DNA from: a virus
Taxonomy: Duplodnaviria > Caudoviricetes
Direction: 5' to 3' (one strand)
IMG/VR virus record: IMGVR_UViG_2711768659_000002
Span: 6,897-70,896 of that record
Length of the DNA stretch: 64,000 bases
Below, in pieces: positions 16,014-59,247 of the stretch (position 1 is its first letter; each line of letters begins with the position of its first letter). A program made the translations under genes and the position numbers. The notes below the pieces were generated by a model that was not told where the DNA came from, ran no database searches, and saw nothing but the letters and a program-made list of their open reading frames with translations.

Positions 16014-16161
16014 ACACCAGTATATCAGTTGGTATAAAGGCCACTACGGCCATATGCCACCACAGAAGTTATTGGACAAGTATTATCCTATTGTCCAGAA
16101 GGAAGATGTGATTCCAGAGCCAACGCTGGAAGAGCGGGAAGCGTTTTGGAGAGAGGAGTAA
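16006..16161 (+). CDS. Hypothetical 51-aa protein (not in ORF track)
   Basis: MDRHQYISW...FWREE; GGAG RBS; overlaps upstream stop. Confidence 0.5.
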   Translation: MDRHQYISWYKGHYGHMPPQKLLDKYYPIVQKEDVIPEPTLEEREAFWREE

Positions 16162-39146: not shown

Positions 39147-39932
39147 TTATTCAATAGGTGTTACCGTATAATCAACGGCCCTGTTGTTGCCGCGAGGCTT
39201 CAGAATAGTAAATGTGACAGTAACAGGCTGTGGAGTTCCACCTTGCTGAGGGGGATTGATTGAGCCCATTACCTTGCACTTATCAACTACGATTGCAGCC
39301 TCATACAAAGTTTCATCTTCTCCGGCAGCTTCACTTGATACGATGAGTTCATAAGTAGGCCTCACAGGAGTTTTGGGAAGACCAAAGCGTGTAGCCTTTG
39401 CAGCCTGATAATCGTAAGAAACAAACAGAGCCTTTCCAGCGTCTGCGGCGACAAATTCAAGCTCGTCCCCATCAAGGATATATTTACCGGATGCAGGAGT
39501 CTCGTCAGTCTCATCCCATGGCTTTGCATTTTTATCAACAAGGATGAATGTAGTATCTAAAGGTTCGTGCTTAAGCTTGACTATATACTTGCCTCCCGTA
39601 GGCTCCATGGGAACTGTGATTTCCTCGTCGACAATAGGAAATGGAGTATTGGTCAATTCCTCCGAGGTATCGCCCATAATGAAAGCATAAAGTTCAGGTG
39701 GCATGAAGCCGAGTTGCACGGCCAAAGTTCCTTCAATTGAAGTATCTGGATTAGCAGCATTCCATAAGCTGTTACCATCAGCGATGGGCGAACCATTGAT
39801 TGTGATGTTTGGCGTTATTTGCTGGACAGCGCCATTGCGGAAATATGAAGTGGTAGCACTCCTGACAGGTATACCATTCACGTACTTGTTAAGCTGGAGT
39901 TTGCCAGCCTTTGAAAAATAAATAGGTTGCAT
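39147..39932 (-). CDS. Major tail tube protein
   Basis: Position and size; beta-rich, acidic. Confidence 0.75.
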   Translation of the reverse strand: MQPIYFSKAGKLQLNKYVNGIPVRSATTSYFRNGAVQQITPNITINGSPIADGNSLWNAANPDTSIEGTLAVQLGFMPPELYAFIMGDTSEELTNTPFPIVDEEITVPMEPTGGKYIVKLKHEPLDTTFILVDKNAKPWDETDETPASGKYILDGDELEFVAADAGKALFVSYDYQAAKATRFGLPKTPVRPTYELIVSSEAAGEDETLYEAAIVVDKCKVMGSINPPQQGGTPQPVTVTFTILKPRGNNRAVDYTVTPIE

Positions 39933-39946
39933 TAAAACAACTCCTT

Positions 39947-40375
39947 TCATAAATTCCGATGGAATTTGTACCTACTCCCACAACAAAAAAAGCCCGACAT
40001 GGTGGGGAGTTCACCAAGCGGAGGCTCTGCATAAAGGTATCTGTTGTTGACTTTCTTTTTGTGAAGCAATTTAAATATCTGCTCTTGTACCAACCATGCC
40101 TTGTAATCTTCGGTGGCAGGGACATGGCAATCAATTTCCATGACTTCCTCAAAAAAACTTTCATTGCGTACCTTACGGGCAGGGAGGAAGTAAACACAAA
40201 GCCTTTTGTCACTTCCAACAAGGTCGCTCCATTGACTTCGCTTGATGATTCGCTTTGCGATATTCACCGGTGTCGCACCTGTGAGGTCGAGCAGAGAAAG
40301 TATGGATGTGTCAGATTTTAAAATCGTCTGTACCGCCGTTAAGTCTTGCGAAGGATTGTACAAAAGCACCACCAC
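39947..40375 (-). CDS. Tail terminator-like protein
   Basis: Position upstream of tail tube; EIDCHVP motif. Confidence 0.6.
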   Translation of the reverse strand: MVVLLYNPSQDLTAVQTILKSDTSILSLLDLTGATPVNIAKRIIKRSQWSDLVGSDKRLCVYFLPARKVRNESFFEEVMEIDCHVPATEDYKAWLVQEQIFKLLHKKKVNNRYLYAEPPLGELPTMSGFFCCGSRYKFHRNL

Positions 40376-46931: not shown

Positions 46932-47325
46932 TTGGTTGGCCTCCGTATTTATTTTTCTGATTCGGCAATTCGCCATTCAGGGCCTTATCAACAAGTTTAC
47001 TTCCCATGGCATAAAACTTCTGGAATTCAGGATTCTCGGGGTCATGATTCCATCCAAGATATTCTTTCGGAGGTTTATTCAGTGCCTTACCGTACATTGA
47101 GCAAATCCCGCCATCAAGGTTTAATTTCCTGATGAATTCGGGTGGCATTTTGCCTTCAACATATAACTTCGTTAATTCGTGGTTTACCAGATTAAGTACC
47201 CCAGTCATAACCAGAACTGAATACCGAAGTTCCTCGTAGTCCGGTCTGGCATTTGATTTGCAGTCCTCAATAATTTCTGATAGATTTCTCATAAAATCAT
47301 CCTCCATTCTATTTGAATTTTTCAA
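46915..47325 (-). CDS. Hypothetical protein
   Basis: Coupled ORF in late operon. Confidence 0.6.
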   Translation of the reverse strand: MKNSNRMEDDFMRNLSEIIEDCKSNARPDYEELRYSVLVMTGVLNLVNHELTKLYVEGKMPPEFIRKLNLDGGICSMYGKALNKPPKEYLGWNHDPENPEFQKFYAMGSKLVDKALNGELPNQKNKYGGQPNETKS

Positions 47326-47548
47326 TTATCCAGCCTTGTTTCTCAAGCCTTAGGATAGCTCTTTTAAGGCCAAATTTTGTGAGCTTTTCTGCGAGCATTG
47401 TCCGGCGCTCAACAGACCATACTATATATCCACTGGGCATTTTAAATATAACCGCCCGTCTGTACCAATTCTGAACCGGTTCACCTTTTCTTGGCGGTAA
47501 TACTGGCGGGTAACACATCAAACTCGGAATATTGGTTAAGTCAATCAT
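47309..47548 (-). CDS. Hypothetical protein
   Basis: GGAGG RBS. Confidence 0.55.
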   Translation of the reverse strand: MIDLTNIPSLMCYPPVLPPRKGEPVQNWYRRAVIFKMPSGYIVWSVERRTMLAEKLTKFGLKRAILRLEKQGWIIEKFK

Positions 47549-47662
47549 TGCAGATACCTCCACATAAAATATGTAAAAGCATGCCGCACGTAGGAAGGAT
47601 GGCCTGGAGGTTTAGGCCGGACCCATAACTAAGTCCCCGTTATTCACGGCATGCAAAATTTA

Positions 47663-48214
47663 TTAACTTGATGCTTTTAAAGCTTCTTCCGAATAGGGTA
47701 AATATTTAGCTCTTGCTTCAATCACAGCCTTTTCAGCTACTTTGATATCTGTAAAACGTCCAAGGTAAATTGTTTTACCTCCAACCCGACAATCTGCAAC
47801 ATAAACACCAGGTGTATTTTTGACGGGATATACTCCTCGGATTCCAGTTTGACTTTTTCTTGTGGCTTGCTTTCTGTTCTGAATGTTTTTCCCAACAGGA
47901 ACAGCACGTAAATTACACCTTCTATTGTCAAGCGTGTTATGATTTATATGGTCAATATCATAACCCGGCTTAGCGTTCATAATCAGCCTATGCATTTGAA
48001 GGAATTTTCTTTTTTCTCCAATAACATAAGTACGCCCTGTAGCATATAAATTTCGGCGCCTTTTATTTTGACTACCATTTACAGTCCATTTCATAGGGAC
48101 ACTACCGACAAGTTCAAAATCAGCAGTATCTATTAAAACCTCGAGACGACTACCATCTATTTTGTCAATAAATATTGTCGTGACATCTCCGCGAATTTCA
48201 TATTTATTTCTCAT
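47663..48214 (-). CDS. Free-standing HNH endonuclease with C-terminal AP2 domain
   Basis: MHRLIM...IDHINHNTLDNRRCNLR; GIRGV..Y.A..IYLGRF....A..A....R..Y. Confidence 0.9.
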   Translation of the reverse strand: MRNKYEIRGDVTTIFIDKIDGSRLEVLIDTADFELVGSVPMKWTVNGSQNKRRRNLYATGRTYVIGEKRKFLQMHRLIMNAKPGYDIDHINHNTLDNRRCNLRAVPVGKNIQNRKQATRKSQTGIRGVYPVKNTPGVYVADCRVGGKTIYLGRFTDIKVAEKAVIEARAKYLPYSEEALKASS

Positions 48215-48312
48215 ATTTGTCGCTCCTCTCAATAGCGCTCCCAAATTTTAAGCATAAGAAAAGGACGGGGGAGCGAATTCCCGTCCTGTCAGTGTTGCAA
48301 CACTGTCTTATG
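48215..48312 (-). ncRNA. Structured 5' leader (three-way junction plus loop-RBS pseudoknot) of the HNH-AP2 gene
   Basis: Outer stem CAUAAGA/UCUUAUG; hairpins CAGUG/CACUG and AGGACGGG/CCCGUCCU; loop UCGCUCC complementary to RBS GGAGCGA. Confidence 0.7.
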
Positions 48313-48326
48313 TAATATTTGTAATA

Positions 48327-49889
48327 TCAACTTGCCCTTACAACTCCAGTCATTCGGAACATACCTGGTAGCACAAGAGCTGGAGCTTGAAAATCGGCAA
48401 AGCAGAAATATAAAGCACTAACAATATCGTCGTAGTCTGAATCTGTTCCGTTATGGTATTGTGTTGATTGTCCTGGCCGGTTAACCGAGATATATCCTTT
48501 TAACTGATTTTCTGTTTCCTGGCTCCATGGAATCTCACACCACTGTTGCTCAACCACAATTGAGAAATCATCAACAAGCTTTTCTTTATTACGGCCTTGC
48601 TCGTTAATAGGGAAGACGGTTAATCCTCTTTTGACAAGCTGGGAACCTATTGTTTCACCGATACCGGTTTGACCGAAGTTAACTGAAGCTCCGTTATATA
48701 GCCGGGAATAGAAAGCTATTCTATCCCACTGCGAATCCCAGCCAAGTCCAATCATTTGGTCAATTTTAACAACACGACCTTTACTGTTTCTTATTACAAC
48801 AGGTTTACCATCACCTTTGGAAGCTGGATCATGTCCGAGAGTGTATGTCTCAAACGGCTCAGGTTCTTCCCACAGTCTCCAGAACTCATTAACTTGCTCA
48901 TCAGTCAGACCGGCAGGAGCTTTCCTTAAAACTCTTTCGTAATTCGGGAAAACGGAATTAATATCTGCAATAAACTCAGCAAGATAATCCTGACGATACC
49001 GGTTCTTTGACATTCTGCGCTCGAGGTTTTCTCTATAAATACGGCCGTTCTTTGTAACTTCGTTTCCTCGGACCGCCATATATGGATTATCCCAGGTAGT
49101 AAACTTCCATGACTCCCAATCAGGGTCCCAATCAGAAGTACCTTTTTGCCCCCAGCGCCACATTTTATAAAAATAATTCATGCCGAGTGGGGAAGAGTTA
49201 ATCAGTGCAACGCCGCCTTTACCTTCAAGACCGCGGCCAGGAGAATTAAGACGTGCCTCAAGGTTTGACCATACATCTTCCATATCTGAAATTCTGGCAG
49301 CTTCCGTGATAGTTACAAGGTCAAGACCGACACCGACCAAAGCTTCAGGGTCATAGGCAGAATGAACTTCAATAACACCGCCATTTACTGTTTCAATTGT
49401 TCTTGTCGTTTTTGAAACATCGACAACTATTTCTTTCGGTAGGTTATGCGTAAGCTCACGCCAGTTCTGGTTAGCTACCTTCTCTGTAGGAGCAATTATC
49501 CACCAAAGCGCATAAGGAACCATGTCAGAACCACGATCTTCATTAAGGCATTTAATAAAGTAATCAATGCCTTCCATGATTGAGCAACGGTCCTTACCCC
49601 ATCTGGCGCCACATGCCAATACTTTGAATCTTGCTTCACTATTGTGAACCAGTTCCTGCCCCCAATGAGGAGTATAGTCGGCAGAGATATTGATACCGCC
49701 TCTGGCATTTGCCATTCGACATTCAGGGCAGGTCTTAAAGGAAGTATAAGACTCGTACTCAGGGCGCCAGATTTGAGAGAATGGCCTGCCGCATTGCTCA
49801 CACATTGAAACTCTATCGCTGGTCGAGTGTTGTATTAACTTTTCATTTTTTTGTTGGATTATTGAGACTGAACCGCCTTTTCGGGGCAT
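48327..49889 (-). CDS. terL: Terminase large subunit with N-terminal Zn-finger
   Basis: CGARWGKD Walker A, LVTITEAA Walker B, GHDPASKGD nuclease and DDIVSAL motifs. Confidence 0.9.
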   Translation of the reverse strand: MPRKGGSVSIIQQKNEKLIQHSTSDRVSMCEQCGRPFSQIWRPEYESYTSFKTCPECRMANARGGINISADYTPHWGQELVHNSEARFKVLACGARWGKDRCSIMEGIDYFIKCLNEDRGSDMVPYALWWIIAPTEKVANQNWRELTHNLPKEIVVDVSKTTRTIETVNGGVIEVHSAYDPEALVGVGLDLVTITEAARISDMEDVWSNLEARLNSPGRGLEGKGGVALINSSPLGMNYFYKMWRWGQKGTSDWDPDWESWKFTTWDNPYMAVRGNEVTKNGRIYRENLERRMSKNRYRQDYLAEFIADINSVFPNYERVLRKAPAGLTDEQVNEFWRLWEEPEPFETYTLGHDPASKGDGKPVVIRNSKGRVVKIDQMIGLGWDSQWDRIAFYSRLYNGASVNFGQTGIGETIGSQLVKRGLTVFPINEQGRNKEKLVDDFSIVVEQQWCEIPWSQETENQLKGYISVNRPGQSTQYHNGTDSDYDDIVSALYFCFADFQAPALVLPGMFRMTGVVRAS

Positions 49890-49925
49890 AAAAATCACCT
49901 GCCATAAGCAGGCTCAAAGGCTCAT

Positions 49926-50066
49926 TCAAATATTAATTTCAACTTCTTTTTTGCAGTGTTTGCACCATAGGTAAATTTTATGAGCTTTACTACCTGTTAT
50001 TAACCGGCATAGCTTCTGTCCACATTCTGGGCATGTACTCCAGATTATATCTATATCCTCTGGCAT
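49926..50066 (-). CDS. Small Zn-ribbon (Com-like) protein
   Basis: CPECGQKL...LWCKHCKKEVEI. Confidence 0.65.
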   Translation of the reverse strand: MPEDIDIIWSTCPECGQKLCRLITGSKAHKIYLWCKHCKKEVEINI

Positions 50067-50098
50067 CTTAGATGATTCATCTAAGTAAATATAATTGC

Positions 50099-50407
50099 TC
50101 AAAATATCAACCCCCTTACCGGAAGCCCCGAAGCTTTGAGCTGTTGCCAAATTTGAAGGAAAAAGCTTCTGAACCATAGTGAATATTTAATGATATGGGG
50201 TGAATCGCAAAAATTAATAGGCTCTTCCATGTTTAGTGGCTCACCTTCGGATAATGCAAGTTTAACAGAATAAGCTAGAGTTTTTCCAGACTGTCTACCT
50301 CCAAACCAGTAAGGACCGTCATGAAATAAATATTCAGTTTGTCCTGGGTAAAGTTTTATGTCCAAAGCCTTTTCAATTAAGGGAATGGTTTCTTCGGTTA
50401 TTTTCAA
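50099..50407 (-). CDS. Small protein resembling the N-terminus of a terminase/helicase ATPase
   Basis: LYPGQ plus GGRQSGKT P-loop with no downstream Walker B. Confidence 0.6.
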   Translation of the reverse strand: MKITEETIPLIEKALDIKLYPGQTEYLFHDGPYWFGGRQSGKTLAYSVKLALSEGEPLNMEEPINFCDSPHIIKYSLWFRSFFLQIWQQLKASGLPVRGLIF

Positions 50408-50425
50408 TTTGACCGCCTCCGATAC

Positions 50426-50590
50426 CTATTCTTCGCGTTTGCAGCTCTCACATCGTAATATGGTTCTTTTGTCAGTCACCAGATAACCCTGCTCCATAAG
50501 CGCTTGTTCAATAATAAGACATTCTGAATCACATTTTTTACATATTATCTTGATTTTTTTTGGTTTTCGAGCAACCAGGTCCTTAAACAT
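50426..50590 (-). CDS. Hypothetical 54-aa Zn-ribbon protein
   Basis: CKKC...CESC; ATG overlaps upstream stop. Confidence 0.5.
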   Translation of the reverse strand: MFKDLVARKPKKIKIICKKCDSECLIIEQALMEQGYLVTDKRTILRCESCKREE

Positions 50591-51104
50591 GGCAATAGTT
50601 CCTCCAATGTTCCCTCACAAAGCCCCTCATACCAGCACCGGGATTATATTCCGGATACACTTTCAAAAACTCGGCTTCGCAATCTTCCAGCGTTTCGCCT
50701 TTGATAATGCCATTCTTGATGAGATATAGCAGACAAATGGATGCTGACCTGCTCTCACCCTGATTGCAATGCACCAAAACTTTGCAGCCTTCAGATAATT
50801 TCTTTTCAATGAAGTCCAGAGCCTTGTCAATCATTCTTTTATCAAAAAAATCAGGCTTTGGGGCATCGACGATATTTAATGCCAGCCTATTTCCACGTTC
50901 AGACCATAGATATTCGGGAGAATCTTTTGGACAACCACGGCCAGTATAACCTACAAATTGCCTGTGGTGTGATTCTTTGCAGGCATGCAAAACTGCCCAT
51001 CCGTTTGTTGGCTGATCAACTTCTCTACCAGGAATGTGTTCTTTTTCAAGATTTAGATAATCATGATCGTTGCCACAGAATAAATTTTTAAATATTTCTC
51101 TCAT
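50583..51104 (-). CDS. Dual-specificity / tyrosine phosphatase family protein
   Basis: VLVHCNQGESRSAS (CX5R). Confidence 0.85.
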   Translation of the reverse strand: MREIFKNLFCGNDHDYLNLEKEHIPGREVDQPTNGWAVLHACKESHHRQFVGYTGRGCPKDSPEYLWSERGNRLALNIVDAPKPDFFDKRMIDKALDFIEKKLSEGCKVLVHCNQGESRSASICLLYLIKNGIIKGETLEDCEAEFLKVYPEYNPGAGMRGFVREHWRNYCHV

Positions 51105-51181
51105 AATGACCTCCAATTATATATTAATAAAATAAAAATAAACGCATTGCAAAAACCTCGAAACACTGATGTATCAATGTG

Positions 51182-51210
51182 TTGACGGAAAACAAGTTTT
51201 ATAGTATAAT
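51182..51210 (+). promoter_or_regulatory. Near-consensus sigma-A promoter antisense to the late operon
   Basis: TTGACG-17 nt-TATAAT. Confidence 0.8.
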
Positions 51211-51272
51211 CTTTTTTAGAGTTAAAAATATTGAGTTACATGGCCATGTACTCCCGGAAAGGAGTACAAATT

Positions 51273-51353
51273 ATGAAAATAAAATATAAATTAATAATTG
51301 CATTAATAATCATTTTGATTTTGATAATTTTGTCAGTAGAGCCTGTATACTAG
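51273..51353 (+). CDS. 26-aa hydrophobic peptide, type I toxin-like (not in ORF track)
   Basis: MKIKYKLIIALIIILILIILSVEPVY*; AGGAG RBS locked in an 8-bp hairpin; own promoter; downstream hairpin at 51365-51383. Confidence 0.65.
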   Translation: MKIKYKLIIALIIILILIILSVEPVY

Positions 51354-51420
51354 AAATAGTAGGGCAGAGGTTATTAACCTCTGTACCTCACAAATAATAT
51401 TAATATAATTAATATTATAA

Positions 51421-51570
51421 TTACTCAGTATTTTCATCATCCTTAACATCAAAAATACAACCTTTACCCGAATTTTTAATATAAAAGTCAAAGAAATCTT
51501 TATAAGTCTTAAGCTCAACAACCTCAAGATTTTGCCATTCATGCCATTTGCAGAAACATAACTTTATCAT
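51421..51570 (-). CDS. Hypothetical 49-aa protein
   Basis: MIKLCFCKWHEW...; weak RBS. Confidence 0.4.
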   Translation of the reverse strand: MIKLCFCKWHEWQNLEVVELKTYKDFFDFYIKNSGKGCIFDVKDDENTE

Positions 51571-51583
51571 ATATTCTTGTCCC

Positions 51584-51739
51584 TTACAATTTTTTCTCAA
51601 TAACGCTAGATATTCCAGCCCAGGGTATAAAGAGTAGAATCAATAATGGATTATCATAGTGTGAACTAAGAAGTATAAATATACCTAGTGCAAACATATC
51701 AATTCGCCCGAATATTCCTTTAAAAAGCCATTTAATCAT
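51584..51739 (-). CDS. Hypothetical 51-aa membrane protein
   Basis: GGAGG RBS; two hydrophobic stretches. Confidence 0.5.
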   Translation of the reverse strand: MIKWLFKGIFGRIDMFALGIFILLSSHYDNPLLILLFIPWAGISSVIEKKL

Positions 51740-51755
51740 TACATTCAACCTCCAA

Positions 51756-52301
51756 TCATTTATGTAATAAAAAATTCCTGAGGTAGTAATAAAACGACAG
51801 ATAAATAAACTGTCCAGAGCATTTTTTATCTTTCATAAAATAAAAGGGAATATCATATCGCTCGCTGAAACTATGCAAAGTAGCCAAAAATGACTCGGGC
51901 TTGTATTCAGTTCTGTAATTATGCTTAAGAATATCAGTGTATTCAGCATCTTCAATTAAAAGCAGCATTTTACCCTTCTTCCGAATGAATTCCGATTCAA
52001 TCCGGAGCCGGTCATTCGTGAAGTTTCCCGAGAGCTCAACTAAATCACCTTTGCGCTCGATGCTGATTTTATCCGTAAAATACAAATCCCTGACTATTCC
52101 TAATTCAGGAGCAGCAGGGAGGAAGAAGCTGTAATCACCAGATTCGATTTTCTGAGTGACATATGGAATTTTCTTTTCAGTCAGCCATTTAGTAATATGG
52201 CCAAAAACAGTTTCTCTACTATCAATAATAATTGTCATGCTTTTAAGTAATAATTGTAATTCTTTATCACTATATCTATAAAAGCTAACCATAGTTGCCA
52301 C
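51756..52301 (-). CDS. ERCC4-domain nuclease
   Basis: IIIDSRE...GDYS...SIERKG..EL..N...R...E. Confidence 0.88.
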   Translation of the reverse strand: MATMVSFYRYSDKELQLLLKSMTIIIDSRETVFGHITKWLTEKKIPYVTQKIESGDYSFFLPAAPELGIVRDLYFTDKISIERKGDLVELSGNFTNDRLRIESEFIRKKGKMLLLIEDAEYTDILKHNYRTEYKPESFLATLHSFSERYDIPFYFMKDKKCSGQFIYLSFYYYLRNFLLHK

Positions 52302-52914
52302 CTGCCTTATCAGTGAGTTGGTCAGTGTAAATCAGAATTTTTCCTTCTCGGTTTTTATCATAAAAATCTTGAAGTGGGTACCAAACAAAAAAATCTTCAT
52401 CATCTTTTGAGGCATTACATCTTCTGCAAGCGCATACAATATTGGACTTTGTGTAGTTGCCACCTTTTACTAATGGTATGAAATGGTCGTTTTCAAGCTT
52501 GACTTTTTCACCGCAATAAGCGCATAAATTATTGAAATATTTAAGACATTCTTTCCAATCGGTGCTAGTAAAATTATTTAATAGATTCTTTAGCCTTTCT
52601 CGCCTTTTTCTAACAGATTCAAGTCGCATCTGATGACCTTTTTCAGTCTTTTCCCATGCCTTAGAGGTTTCTTTATCTCTTTCTTTATTTTTTATTCTAT
52701 AATCGCGGACATAGTTTTTGTTTTCTTTTGTCCATTTCCGTTTTCTTAGAATAAGTTTGTCGTGATGTTTCGCCATATACTGTTTATAATCATCACTGCA
52801 ACATTGTTTACATCTGTACTGTAAACCATCTTTGTAGTTTTTGTTTTTCGAGAAATACTCAGAAGTTGCAGGCTTTAACTGATTACATTTGTTGCATCTT
52901 TTTAGTTCTTCCAT
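52285..52914 (-). CDS. HNH endonuclease with N-terminal Zn-binding domain
   Basis: CNKC..KP..YF...C..C; CAYCG...DHFIPL.KGG....NIVCACRRCNASK. Confidence 0.9.
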   Translation of the reverse strand: MEELKRCNKCNQLKPATSEYFSKNKNYKDGLQYRCKQCCSDDYKQYMAKHHDKLILRKRKWTKENKNYVRDYRIKNKERDKETSKAWEKTEKGHQMRLESVRKRRERLKNLLNNFTSTDWKECLKYFNNLCAYCGEKVKLENDHFIPLVKGGNYTKSNIVCACRRCNASKDDEDFFVWYPLQDFYDKNREGKILIYTDQLTDKAGGNYG

Positions 52915-53018
52915 GATTTTCGCACCCTTTCAGTATTCGCACCATATGTATAAAAAGACATAAGAAAAGCGAGGTAGGTGCGTATACCTCGCTATCAGCC
53001 CGTCGGCTGTCTTCTGCC
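52915..53018 (-). ncRNA. Structured 5' leader of the second HNH gene (same architecture as 48215-48312)
   Basis: Outer stem GGCAGAAGA/UCUUAUGUC; hairpins CAGCC/GGCUG and AGCGAGGU/ACCUCGCU; loop CGCACC complementary to two GGUGCG, one at the RBS. Confidence 0.7.
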
Positions 53019-53026
53019 ATATTTAA

Positions 53027-53575
53027 CTATTCATCATCTGAATTATCAATCTGTATTGCTCCCTGGACTGTCCCGGAGCTCTTGAACATGAAATTAATCT
53101 TCTGCTTTTTCTTGGTACCGAATTCGTCCGTAGAATTTCGGTTCATAAGATTTTTTAGAGTGCCAGTTAATCGTTCAGCAGCTTCAGCCATGAATTTCAT
53201 GTCCATAGGAGTGTTTATGTTTTTTGATACACGGTCCAGGGTTTCTTTTGAAAGAACAGAATCAATTATCTTCTCAACAGCTCCGACTGTTTTTCTGGCA
53301 GTATCGAGCTTCTTATTATCAACCTCTAGCTCAATCTGCTGCCGTTTGACTGCCAACTGCTGCTTATTTATCTGCGCCAGAGACTCTATATCGGTTATCA
53401 TTTGGACTCTTTGTTCAGTTTCATCATTTACGGTTATAATAGGCGATTGCAGGAGGGGATTAACCGGTAGAAGTTCGTTTTCCAGAGGGCTAGGTTCGAA
53501 GATGTCTACTTCTACAGGGTCTGATTTCTGTTTTGCAGGTGTTTTTTTAGTTTTATGAGATTGTTTAGCCGACAC
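53027..53575 (-). CDS. Hypothetical helical protein, candidate terminase small subunit
   Basis: Size, helical core and position near the start of the late operon; no diagnostic motif. Confidence 0.35.
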   Translation of the reverse strand: MSAKQSHKTKKTPAKQKSDPVEVDIFEPSPLENELLPVNPLLQSPIITVNDETEQRVQMITDIESLAQINKQQLAVKRQQIELEVDNKKLDTARKTVGAVEKIIDSVLSKETLDRVSKNINTPMDMKFMAEAAERLTGTLKNLMNRNSTDEFGTKKKQKINFMFKSSGTVQGAIQIDNSDDE

Positions 53576-53600
53576 GATATCACCTGCTTTCGGGGGAAAG

Positions 53601-53627
53601 AAAAAGCACCCTTGATTTTAAGGTGCT
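53601..53627 (-). terminator. Intrinsic terminator after the 93-aa moron
   Basis: agcacc/ggtgct stem plus T-run on minus strand. Confidence 0.65.
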
Positions 53628-53651
53628 CAAATCACATGCTATATCTTTTGA

Positions 53652-53933
53652 TTAGGTTTCTTTCAGGTATGTATCTCTCAGGTTAGCGAGTAAAACATTA
53701 CCTCTGGCTATTTCGCCGTTATAATTATAAACAATAAAATCATATCCAGGGTATTGTTTTTTTAGTTTTTCCTTTAAAAATGACACATTAGCAGAGTTCA
53801 TTGTTGCATATTTTGCGTTATAGTTATATGGCAAATCAACTTCACTTCTTACGTTCTTCCCATTTTTAACAAAGTCTACTCGGACACCTTCAATTTCAAA
53901 AATAGTTTTCTCAACATAGGCAACTGTTGGCAT
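53652..53933 (-). CDS. 93-aa moron protein of unknown function
   Basis: AGGAGG RBS; own promoter TTGAAG-17-TATAAT (53958-53986); own terminator. Confidence 0.8.
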   Translation of the reverse strand: MPTVAYVEKTIFEIEGVRVDFVKNGKNVRSEVDLPYNYNAKYATMNSANVSFLKEKLKKQYPGYDFIVYNYNGEIARGNVLLANLRDTYLKET

Positions 53934-53997
53934 ATTAGCACCTCCTTTTTATGTTAAATTATACATAAAGAAGTGTAATGCTTCAAGTTATTACAAT

Positions 53998-54573
53998 TTA
54001 TTTTAAATTTGGGCGTCTATCTATAAATTCCTGATAAGCGATAAAACGAGCCTGCCTATATGAAATCTTCATGTGTGGAGCTGCCTTGTTCGCATTATCT
54101 ACCACACGCTTAAATTCTGTTGCTAATTCTTTTGGTATCCAATCATTCCAGTTTTCACAATTCTCAGGCTTTGTCTTTGGCCTGCCAGAGCTCACCTTTG
54201 GAACTCTCCCGGTCCGCTGCCATTTATCAAAGTGACTTTTCTTTATAGCCCATGTCTTGCGGCCTTCTTCTTCAAAACAGACAAAGAGGTGGGCAATAGG
54301 GGCAAGTTCACTTACACCAGAGGGATTGCTTTTATCAAATTTGGCAACGGTTGCTTTTGGGATACCTAACATGCGAGCGACACCAAATAAACTGTAAAAG
54401 GATTCTGGCGCTTTAAGCATGGCCATCACCACCAGTGGCAGCTTTTTGAGCTTTCCTGAATTGATATATTTTACGTCTGATTGCACGTCGGCGCTCTTTA
54501 AAAGCTTCGCATTGCTTTCTCTGTCTGTATTTATCGCAACCAATACAATTTTTTTGACACTCCATAAAACCAC
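53998..54573 (-). CDS. Hypothetical, probably DNA-binding, protein
   Basis: GGAGG RBS; basic; GRPK AT-hook-like motif. Confidence 0.6.
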   Translation of the reverse strand: MVLWSVKKIVLVAINTDRESNAKLLKSADVQSDVKYINSGKLKKLPLVVMAMLKAPESFYSLFGVARMLGIPKATVAKFDKSNPSGVSELAPIAHLFVCFEEEGRKTWAIKKSHFDKWQRTGRVPKVSSGRPKTKPENCENWNDWIPKELATEFKRVVDNANKAAPHMKISYRQARFIAYQEFIDRRPNLK

Positions 54574-59170: not shown

Positions 59171-59247
59171 TTTTGCAGATGGGCGGCCTTATGGCCGTTA
59201 ATGCGCTCCCGGATACCGGGAACCCGTCCAAAGCCGGGAAGCATGAC
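59166..59247 (+). ncRNA. Circularly permuted (type P5-like) twister ribozyme
   Basis: GCA-GA-UGG-GCGGCC-uuau-GGCCGU-UAA-UGC-GC-[P3]-A-CCCG-UCCAAAGC-CGGG; both pseudoknots pair; predicted cleavage U59199/A59200. Confidence 0.8.

Follow-up and report, generated by a model that had tools for sequence, protein, structure and literature searches.

We suggest that a structured leader RNA, present in front of two different HNH endonuclease genes in the window (the whole 64,000-nt stretch of viral DNA analysed here), acts in cis as a two-state control of translation. An anti-Shine-Dalgarno (anti-SD) segment in a hairpin loop would pair either with a decoy box (R1) or with the true Shine-Dalgarno (SD) sequence of the downstream gene (R2), with probable partial termination of transcription at the same hairpin (P2). 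We put the probability of this reading at about 55%. Judging from the predicted structure, the leader most likely sets the amount of nuclease made. Selfish nuclease and methylase genes need low or timed expression, as they otherwise harm the phage, and to our knowledge the means of such control are largely unknown outside the T-even phages. The control element described here appears to be portable: it moves with the gene, suits unrelated cargo, and its specificity can seemingly be rewritten by simple compensatory changes. On our model, known ideas, namely control of selfish nucleases at the ribosome-binding site (RBS) and SD / anti-SD / anti-anti-SD logic, are combined in a portable pseudoknot module that Rfam misses. 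If the two-state model is true, it would explain the orphan int-alpA motif of Rfam (discussed below), offer synthetic biology a small, programmable device for throttling translation, and help annotators to recognise cassettes that entered a phage genome recently.

Two leaders and their cassettes in the window

Copy 1 of the leader is located in the late/packaging operon of the prophage, between the terminase and portal genes, and consists of the following parts, listed together with the neighbouring features:

48327-49898, minus strand: TerL gene (phrog_2)
47663..48326, minus strand: inserted cassette, leader plus HNH gene, between the TerL stop and the resident structured element
48306..48312, minus strand: P0 5' strand CAUAAGA, pairing with UCUUAUG at 48259-48253
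48290..48305, minus strand: P1 hairpin, 6 bp, loop UGCA, read from the sequence and the minimum free energy (MFE) fold
Between P1 and P2, minus strand: joiner AC, two unpaired bases
48262..48287, minus strand: P2 hairpin, 8 bp (48287-48280 with 48269-48262), -14.1 kcal/mol
48279-48270, minus strand: P2 loop AAUUCGCUCC, 10 nt, of which nucleotides 4-10 are the putative anti-SD segment
48253..48261, minus strand: UU joiner and P0 3' strand UCUUAUG
48236..48242, minus strand: R1 "decoy" box GGGAGCG, complementary to the P2 loop, after a 10-nt A/U linker behind P0
48220..48226, minus strand: R2 box GGAGCGA, the SD of the HNH gene, with 5 nt separating it from the start codon (ATG, 48214)
47663..48214, minus strand: HNH_3 endonuclease gene, 183 aa, cassette cargo (PF13392, E = 2.2e-6)
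47579-47654, minus strand: resident structured element after the HNH gene, found directly behind the TerL stop in relatives L290, L291, L299, L301 and L306

P0 begins 14 nt past the TerL stop codon TGA (48329-48327), and the N-terminus of the HNH protein is consistent with that of a homologue in L307. The unconstrained MFE fold of copy 1 is exactly a three-way junction of P0, P1 and P2 (span 48312-48253), with an energy of -31.9 kcal/mol (z = -3.3) that was equalled by 1 of 200 shuffles, and the SD region is essentially open in both the nested MFE and the centroid folds. Nucleotides 4-10 of the P2 loop pair with R2 and nucleotides 5-10 with R1, giving duplexes of -12.3 and -10.0 kcal/mol, respectively; a second site of equal quality was found in none of 500 shuffles of the tail. 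The original prediction had described the outer stem CAUAAGA/UCUUAUG, the inner hairpin and the 8-bp stem with its 10-nt loop much as they appear in the sequence and the MFE fold, and its proposal that the loop complements the RBS GGAGCGA as well as the upstream GGGAGCG agrees with the two duplex energies. The single A that it placed between the hairpins is the two-base joiner AC, a trivial correction to an otherwise accurate description and set of coordinates. The final U of P2, the UU joiner and the P0 3' strand together read UUUUCUUAUG, a terminator-like U-tract.

The second leader is found some distance away, in front of an unrelated HNH gene:

52915..53016, minus strand: copy 2 of the leader, preceding the HNH_5/HNH gene 52914-52285
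53016-53010 with 52965-52959, minus strand: P0
53009-52996, minus strand: P1
52993-52968, minus strand: P2, loop UACGCACC, -14.0 kcal/mol
52943-52938, minus strand: R1, GGUGCG
52926-52921, minus strand: R2, GGUGCG

Its predicted topology is that of copy 1. The two copies are ~75% identical in alignment, with AAGACAG, CUGA and UUUUCUUAUG common to both, which makes them homologous elements and not independent inventions. At the same time, P1, the P2 stem, the loop and both boxes differ between the copies in a mutually consistent manner. The gene at 52914 had been singled out as an instance of the same geometry with different sequence, i.e. of natural covariation within one genome, and we arrive at the same view: the loop (CGCACC) and both boxes (GGUGCG) have changed together.

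Comparison with relatives delimits both inserts. In phages with related TerL genes (60-93% identity) the stop codon is directly followed by the resident element, a different and larger conserved structure, in all five relatives listed above, and the insert is therefore window 48326-47663, leader plus HNH gene. For copy 2, a complete 74-kb relative (G154) has flanks that are 81-85% identical and a 10-nt spacer replacing window 52293-53025, and our covariance model R1 (see below) matches nothing in its whole genome. Leader and gene are thus one inserted cassette, for which close relatives have empty sites.

Some further details of the junctions were observed. At window 52285-52301 (minus strand) the end of the copy-2 HNH gene overlaps the ERCC4-domain gene downstream in its start region (ATG..TAG), and the SD of the latter gene (GGUGG) sits within the HNH coding sequence; the cassette has thus taken the place of the 10-nt spacer originally present and provides the RBS of its neighbour. 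The copy-1 cassette is flanked in the window by CAAGTTGA at the TerL end (48326-48335) and CAAGTTAA at the HNH end (47663-47672). In the cassette-free relative L290 (5560-5590, plus strand) CAAGTTAA occurs twice in tandem, and in other relatives once; this repeat could be a footprint of cassette gain or loss.

Members of the family and covariation

Further members were sought in public collections by pattern matching, and the matches were then sifted with a covariance model derived from four sequences (model R1, not to be confused with box R1). Seven were found beyond copies 1 and 2, five of them in viral contigs (L004, L008, L017, L154 and L156), one in a metagenome contig (L208) and one in a genome of the host's genus (L143, in G027). 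A weaker member is present in L294, and by the sequence definition the family comes to about 11 members. Matches of the first collection pattern in genome contigs were mostly due to chance, among the matches listed, and a second pattern, applied to metagenome and genome contigs, re-found the known members with L208 as the sole addition. A search of 38 family genomes and 149 order genomes with model R1 gave L143 as the one convincing extra member; the locus L144 was a doubtful match to the model and resembles a plain terminator. Whole records of five member contigs carry one leader copy apiece, and blastn of window 47000-54000 against the phage collection returned no match.

The stems of these members covary. 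In a nine-member alignment, fitted to model R1 and hence biased toward structure, 95.6% of cells are paired, compared with 77% in shuffles and 41-54% in controls with slid partners. Changes on both sides are seen in 11 of the 21 pairs, and none of 500 shuffles of the nine members reached any of the measures. The original prediction had named a lack of further covarying examples as grounds for giving it up; with these seven members and their compensatory pairs, such examples are at hand. Broken down by helix, P0 is 90% paired with one compensatory GC<->UA pair, three of the six P1 pairs show changes on both sides, and seven of the eight P2 pairs are compensatory; the changes in P1 and P2 can be recognised in the alignment by eye. 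The UUGCAA motif of P1 is kept in eight of nine members. Further to that, G-U pairs occur in P2 of L208 and L008, in P1 of L017, and between the loop and R1 of L208 (GGAGUGA) and also of L154, indicating that selection acts on this RNA strand.

Pairing between the loop and the boxes was scored for each member by duplex scripts; MAFFT misaligns the two boxes. Four specific combinations were seen: CGCUCC with GGAGCG-type boxes (copy 1 and L208), CGCACC with GGUGCG (copy 2), CGACACCC with GGGUGUCG and GGUGUC (L017), and UUGGCUUC with GAAGCCAA and AGAAGC (L008). L004, L143 and L154 have the generic loop AACUCCA (CUCC class), which fits any GGAG and thus any SD, so that complementarity in these three is weak evidence when taken alone. 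In a cross matrix of loops and tails the best partner for each loop is its own tail. The best two non-overlapping sites for the loop are R1 and the SD in every member. Of eight members whose tails were shuffled 500 times, six never produced an equally good second site, and two did so in 6-7 of the shuffles. Covariation of R2 with the loop extends past the SD core, to GCG in copies 1 and 2, UGUCG in L017 and GCCAA in L008.

The position of the paired segment within the loop is likewise regular: in seven of eight members the loop keeps 1-4 unpaired nucleotides at its 5' side, and the segment ends at the 3' strand of P2 or one nucleotide before it. As modelled, this is the arrangement of a classical H-type pseudoknot. 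The first box lies at +8 to +15 after P0 (+26 in L008) and the second at +22 to +37. Between the R1 and R2 duplexes the energy gap is 0 to 4.4 kcal/mol, and its sign varies by member: the loop pairs more strongly with R2 in copy 1, L017 and L008, and R1 is the better complement in L208, L004, L143 and L154. Such near-equal energies are consistent with competition between the boxes.

The genes behind the leaders, whose classes the original prediction had proposed to survey with a covariance model, are HNH_3 in four members (copy 1, L004, L143 and L154, with an AP2 DNA-binding domain in the protein of L004), HNH_5/HNH in copy 2 and MT-A70 in L008 and L017. The earlier idea that the leader travels with endonuclease cassettes therefore stands as regards travelling, since leader and gene are both missing from the empty sites, and fails as regards endonucleases, since methylases are carried too. 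Only short ORFs follow the leaders of L208 and L156, and these two loci may be remnants. At the same TerL site as copy 1, L295 carries an N6_N4 DNA methylase gene behind a simplified leader that lacks P1 (L295:5552-5600, plus strand): it retains a CAUAAG remnant, a P2-like hairpin and a tail UUUUCUCAUAC, and its loop matches GGUGAG at the start codon. HNH homologues that were retrieved by protein (L307-L310) have no leader of this kind. As a separate observation, the distant copy-2 HNH homologues L311 and L312 have a long near-perfect hairpin ~90 nt upstream of position 1501 with the SD (AGGAG) in its 3' strand, which by analogy appears to be the simple, T4-style form of RBS sequestration.

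Proposed mode of action and its alternatives

On the two-state model, the leader would fold into the three-way junction on the mRNA, and the 3' part of the P2 loop would act as an anti-SD sequence. Pairing of the loop with R1, an SD-like decoy 10 nt past the junction, would create an H-type pseudoknot and leave the true SD free, while the alternative pairing with R2, the true SD, would block binding of the 30S subunit. As both pairings are nearly iso-energetic, the leader could throttle translation of the cargo gene, or switch it, between two states. P2 together with UUUUCUUAU would probably form a partial intrinsic terminator, insulating the cassette from upstream transcription. What the sequences establish is the fold, the covariation within the stems and between the loop and both boxes, a geometry suited to a pseudoknot, the limits of the cassettes and the kinds of cargo; three roles, repression of translation by R2 pairing, competition of R1 with R2 and termination at P2, we infer from the predicted structures. 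Should R1 always win co-transcriptionally, the SD would simply be free and the device would have no obvious effect.

The terminator part of the proposal is based on anatomy. P2 is GC-rich, 8-9 bp long (-14.1 and -14.0 kcal/mol in copies 1 and 2, respectively) and directly followed by UUUUCUUAU; a hairpin with such a U-tract has the features of an intrinsic terminator, and P0 is built from the same U-tract. A terminator scan flags the hairpin of copy 2 and misses that of copy 1 because its loop exceeds the 8-nt limit of the scan. Given the location of copy 1 between terminase and portal, a P2 that terminated efficiently would impose a cost on the phage, and we would expect either partial termination at P2 or read-through by an antiterminated polymerase. 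A further terminator-like hairpin is present immediately upstream of the junction in L143, L154 and L008. A sigma-70 scan, which does not reach phage-specific late promoters, found no sigma-70-type promoter in or before the leader of either copy, and AT-rich -10-like hexamers upstream of P0 are at background level.

Two other uses of the conserved sequences were considered and rejected. A leader peptide would start at the AUG that is conserved in the 3' strand of P0, but this codon lacks an SD, and its frame ends variously or enters the main ORF. R1 could be the SD of an alternative start in copy 1 (in-frame UUG) and L017 (a 6-codon ORF) only, and such a function is not general.

Of the other explanations, a trans-acting sRNA, which we regard as unlikely, would have its transcript end at P2 and the U-tract, with the tail pairing back as P0 and the loop serving as antisense to R1 and R2 of read-through cassette mRNAs. 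The logic would be that of phage P1 c4 RNA and would fit the sRNA label that Rfam gives to int-alpA. P2, with 8-9 bp and about -14 kcal/mol ahead of UUUUCUUAU, is suited to this, P0 pairs exactly with bases of the would-be terminated 3' tail, and the upstream terminator-like hairpins of L143, L154 and L008 mean that the junction could start a new transcript. However, neither copy is preceded by a sigma-70-type promoter, the loop and its targets share one strand and are always separated by 20-45 nt, so that pairing in cis should dominate on read-through RNA, and the downstream operon genes (portal, ERCC4-like) need read-through at both copies. We rank next, and also consider unlikely, an activating pseudoknot, in which the loop:R1 pairing would be the ground state that organises the initiation region or protects the 5' part of the mRNA, allowing efficient translation of the cargo anywhere, with the similarity of R2 to the loop a by-product of R1 being SD-like. 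Activating pseudoknots between a loop and the RBS region are known from repZ of plasmid ColIb-P9, as are SD-like 5' stabilisers from Bacillus, and both count in its favour. The four members in which R1 is the better complement also agree with it, as does the fact that the first box belongs to the conserved int-alpA model. A by-product, however, would not explain why R2 and the loop covary past the SD core (GCG, UGUCG, GCCAA), and in copy 1, L017 and L008 the loop pairs better with R2 than with R1.

It is improbable, in our view, that the element is a mere intrinsic terminator or a stabiliser of RNA 3' ends, with the loop/box matches reflecting how common anti-SD-like loops and SDs are. The terminator anatomy, the generic CUCC loops of L004, L143 and L154, and the likewise terminator-like resident element after TerL and hairpin at 40019 (see below) all point in that direction; against this, covariation outside the SD core is found in four loop classes and always at two sites, P0 and P1 are conserved although a plain terminator does not need them, and the element is absent from the empty sites of relatives, which have an intergenic structure of their own. 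Far less credible still is a reading in terms of DNA, with the three 6-8-bp copies of the box (one inverted, two direct) as protein sites, either an operator or a mimic of the homing site of the nuclease. There is precedent in I-TevI, whose operator resembles its homing site and which represses its own synthesis (PMC2988022), and HNH_3 proteins often carry an AP2 DNA-binding domain, as in L004. Yet the same design accompanies two HNH and two methylase families, the boxes differ among cassettes of the same protein family, the G-U wobbles at R1 of L208 and L154 are tolerable only in RNA, and the inverted copy is always found in a hairpin loop adjoining the 3' strand of the stem.

Known RNAs and related designs

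The leader had not been assigned to any named Rfam family in the original prediction, and our scans agree: no Rfam match was obtained for it in the window or, at E <= 1, in six member loci. The closest likeness is to int-alpA (RF02996, cut-off 35.8 bits); a search of the whole genome with that model gave nothing at E <= 10. In Rfam, int-alpA has the type "Gene; sRNA", and a search of the literature on its function found no describing paper. We compared the leader with five int-alpA examples above the Rfam cut-off, from one Serratia genome and three other Enterobacterales genomes; none were found in E. coli K-12 CP4-57, CFT073, O157 Sakai or phage P22.

The RF02996 consensus shows the same three-way junction, with a closing stem P0 around P1 and then P2. 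Its second hairpin has the loop AACCUUA and its tail ends in AAGG, which places the first box inside the 3' tail of the Rfam model. In the examples the P2 loop (AACCUUA, CACCUC, UAACCCUAA) complements a purine box (+8 to +12) and, farther on, the SD (+20 to +25), and the U/A-rich linker is of equal length to that of the leader. In contrast, the junctions are CUAG, CGAAAA and CUGG in int-alpA and none, AY and UU in the leader family, P2 is 5 bp with a U-tract after a GC-rich P0, whereas P2 of the leader family is 8-9 bp and the U-tract itself forms P0, and the examples come from Proteobacteria and precede DUF6387 and unassigned proteins, whereas the leader family belongs to phages of Bacillota with nucleases and methylases as cargo. 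Model R1, run with filters off, detected none of the int-alpA examples. With the same topology, spacing and logic, but with different junctions, P2 length and U-tract and no mutual detection, we class the leader as int-alpA-like in architecture, without counting it as part of that family; the likeness may be due to common descent or to convergence.

Three mutually complementary elements including the SD, only two of which can pair at once, are the basis of SD / anti-SD / anti-anti-SD switches, such as the tac, ucb and fbi elements of hok mRNA and the expression platforms of riboswitches. The leader is similar to these, except that its anti-SD lies in a hairpin loop (predicted pseudoknot) and that no ligand domain, processing step or leader peptide was identified as a trigger. 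The c4 antisense RNA of phages P1 and P7 (RF01695) is processed out and acts in trans through two loops (a' and b'). As with the leader, this RNA lies upstream on the same transcript, and its loops complement repeated boxes, including a set that spans the RBS of a downstream gene; the leader differs in having a single loop and two boxes, both downstream, and no Rfam match to c4.

Homing-endonuclease genes of T-even phages (I-TevI, I-TevII, I-TevIII, segB and mobE) are kept in check by RNA structures in which the RBS is sequestered (PMC2988022). This is similar to what we propose in that a structured leader targets the SD of a selfish nuclease gene inside a phage operon, which it directly precedes, presumably so that nuclease synthesis stays low or timed. 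In T4, however, the SD is within a simple local hairpin and is relieved by a late promoter inside that hairpin (PMC2988022), whereas the SD behind our leader is unpaired in the nested fold and would be reached by a hairpin loop as a predicted pseudoknot. Other differences from T4 are the presence of a decoy box, the lack of an internal promoter in the sigma-70 scan, and the use of one module with unrelated cargo.

Designs that resemble the leader occur elsewhere in the prophage. A generic scan for hairpins whose loop complements two sites farther downstream, of which the second precedes a start codon, gave four matches in the window, both leaders included, compared with 0-1 in ten block shuffles; the match at 16112 is probably due to chance. 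A plain terminator-like hairpin at 40019-39992 (minus strand), with a U7 tail, the loop AACUCCC and no three-way junction, has in that loop a complement of GGGAGU, 12 nt farther on, and of the SD (GGAGUU) of the gene behind it. That gene (ATG at 39932, 261 aa) belongs to the structural region and has no Pfam family, and this, together with the methylase cargo, means that the design is not specific to endonucleases. The resident element behind TerL has a long closing stem with compensatory changes in 8 of 23 pairs, an apical loop with CCUCC and a U-rich tail. Relatives have two GGAGG(C) boxes between it and the next gene, and the window has one only; the element (47579-47654) has no Rfam match.

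Tentatively, with odds below even, we consider that the leader, int-alpA and the plain two-box terminator hairpins with anti-SD loops in this prophage may be forms of one widespread programmable module with which phages of different bacterial phyla insulate horizontally acquired genes and meter their translation. If this is so, the loop, decoy and SD would be rewritten together on a constant scaffold, and the orphan Rfam family would acquire a function, with a general rule for the domestication of morons or selfish genes in phage operons.

A match to a ribozyme of a known class also lies in the window. The Rfam scan at gathering thresholds returned Twister-P5 alone, a type-P5 twister ribozyme at 59174-59238 on the plus strand, with 44.7 bits against a gathering score of 37.6.
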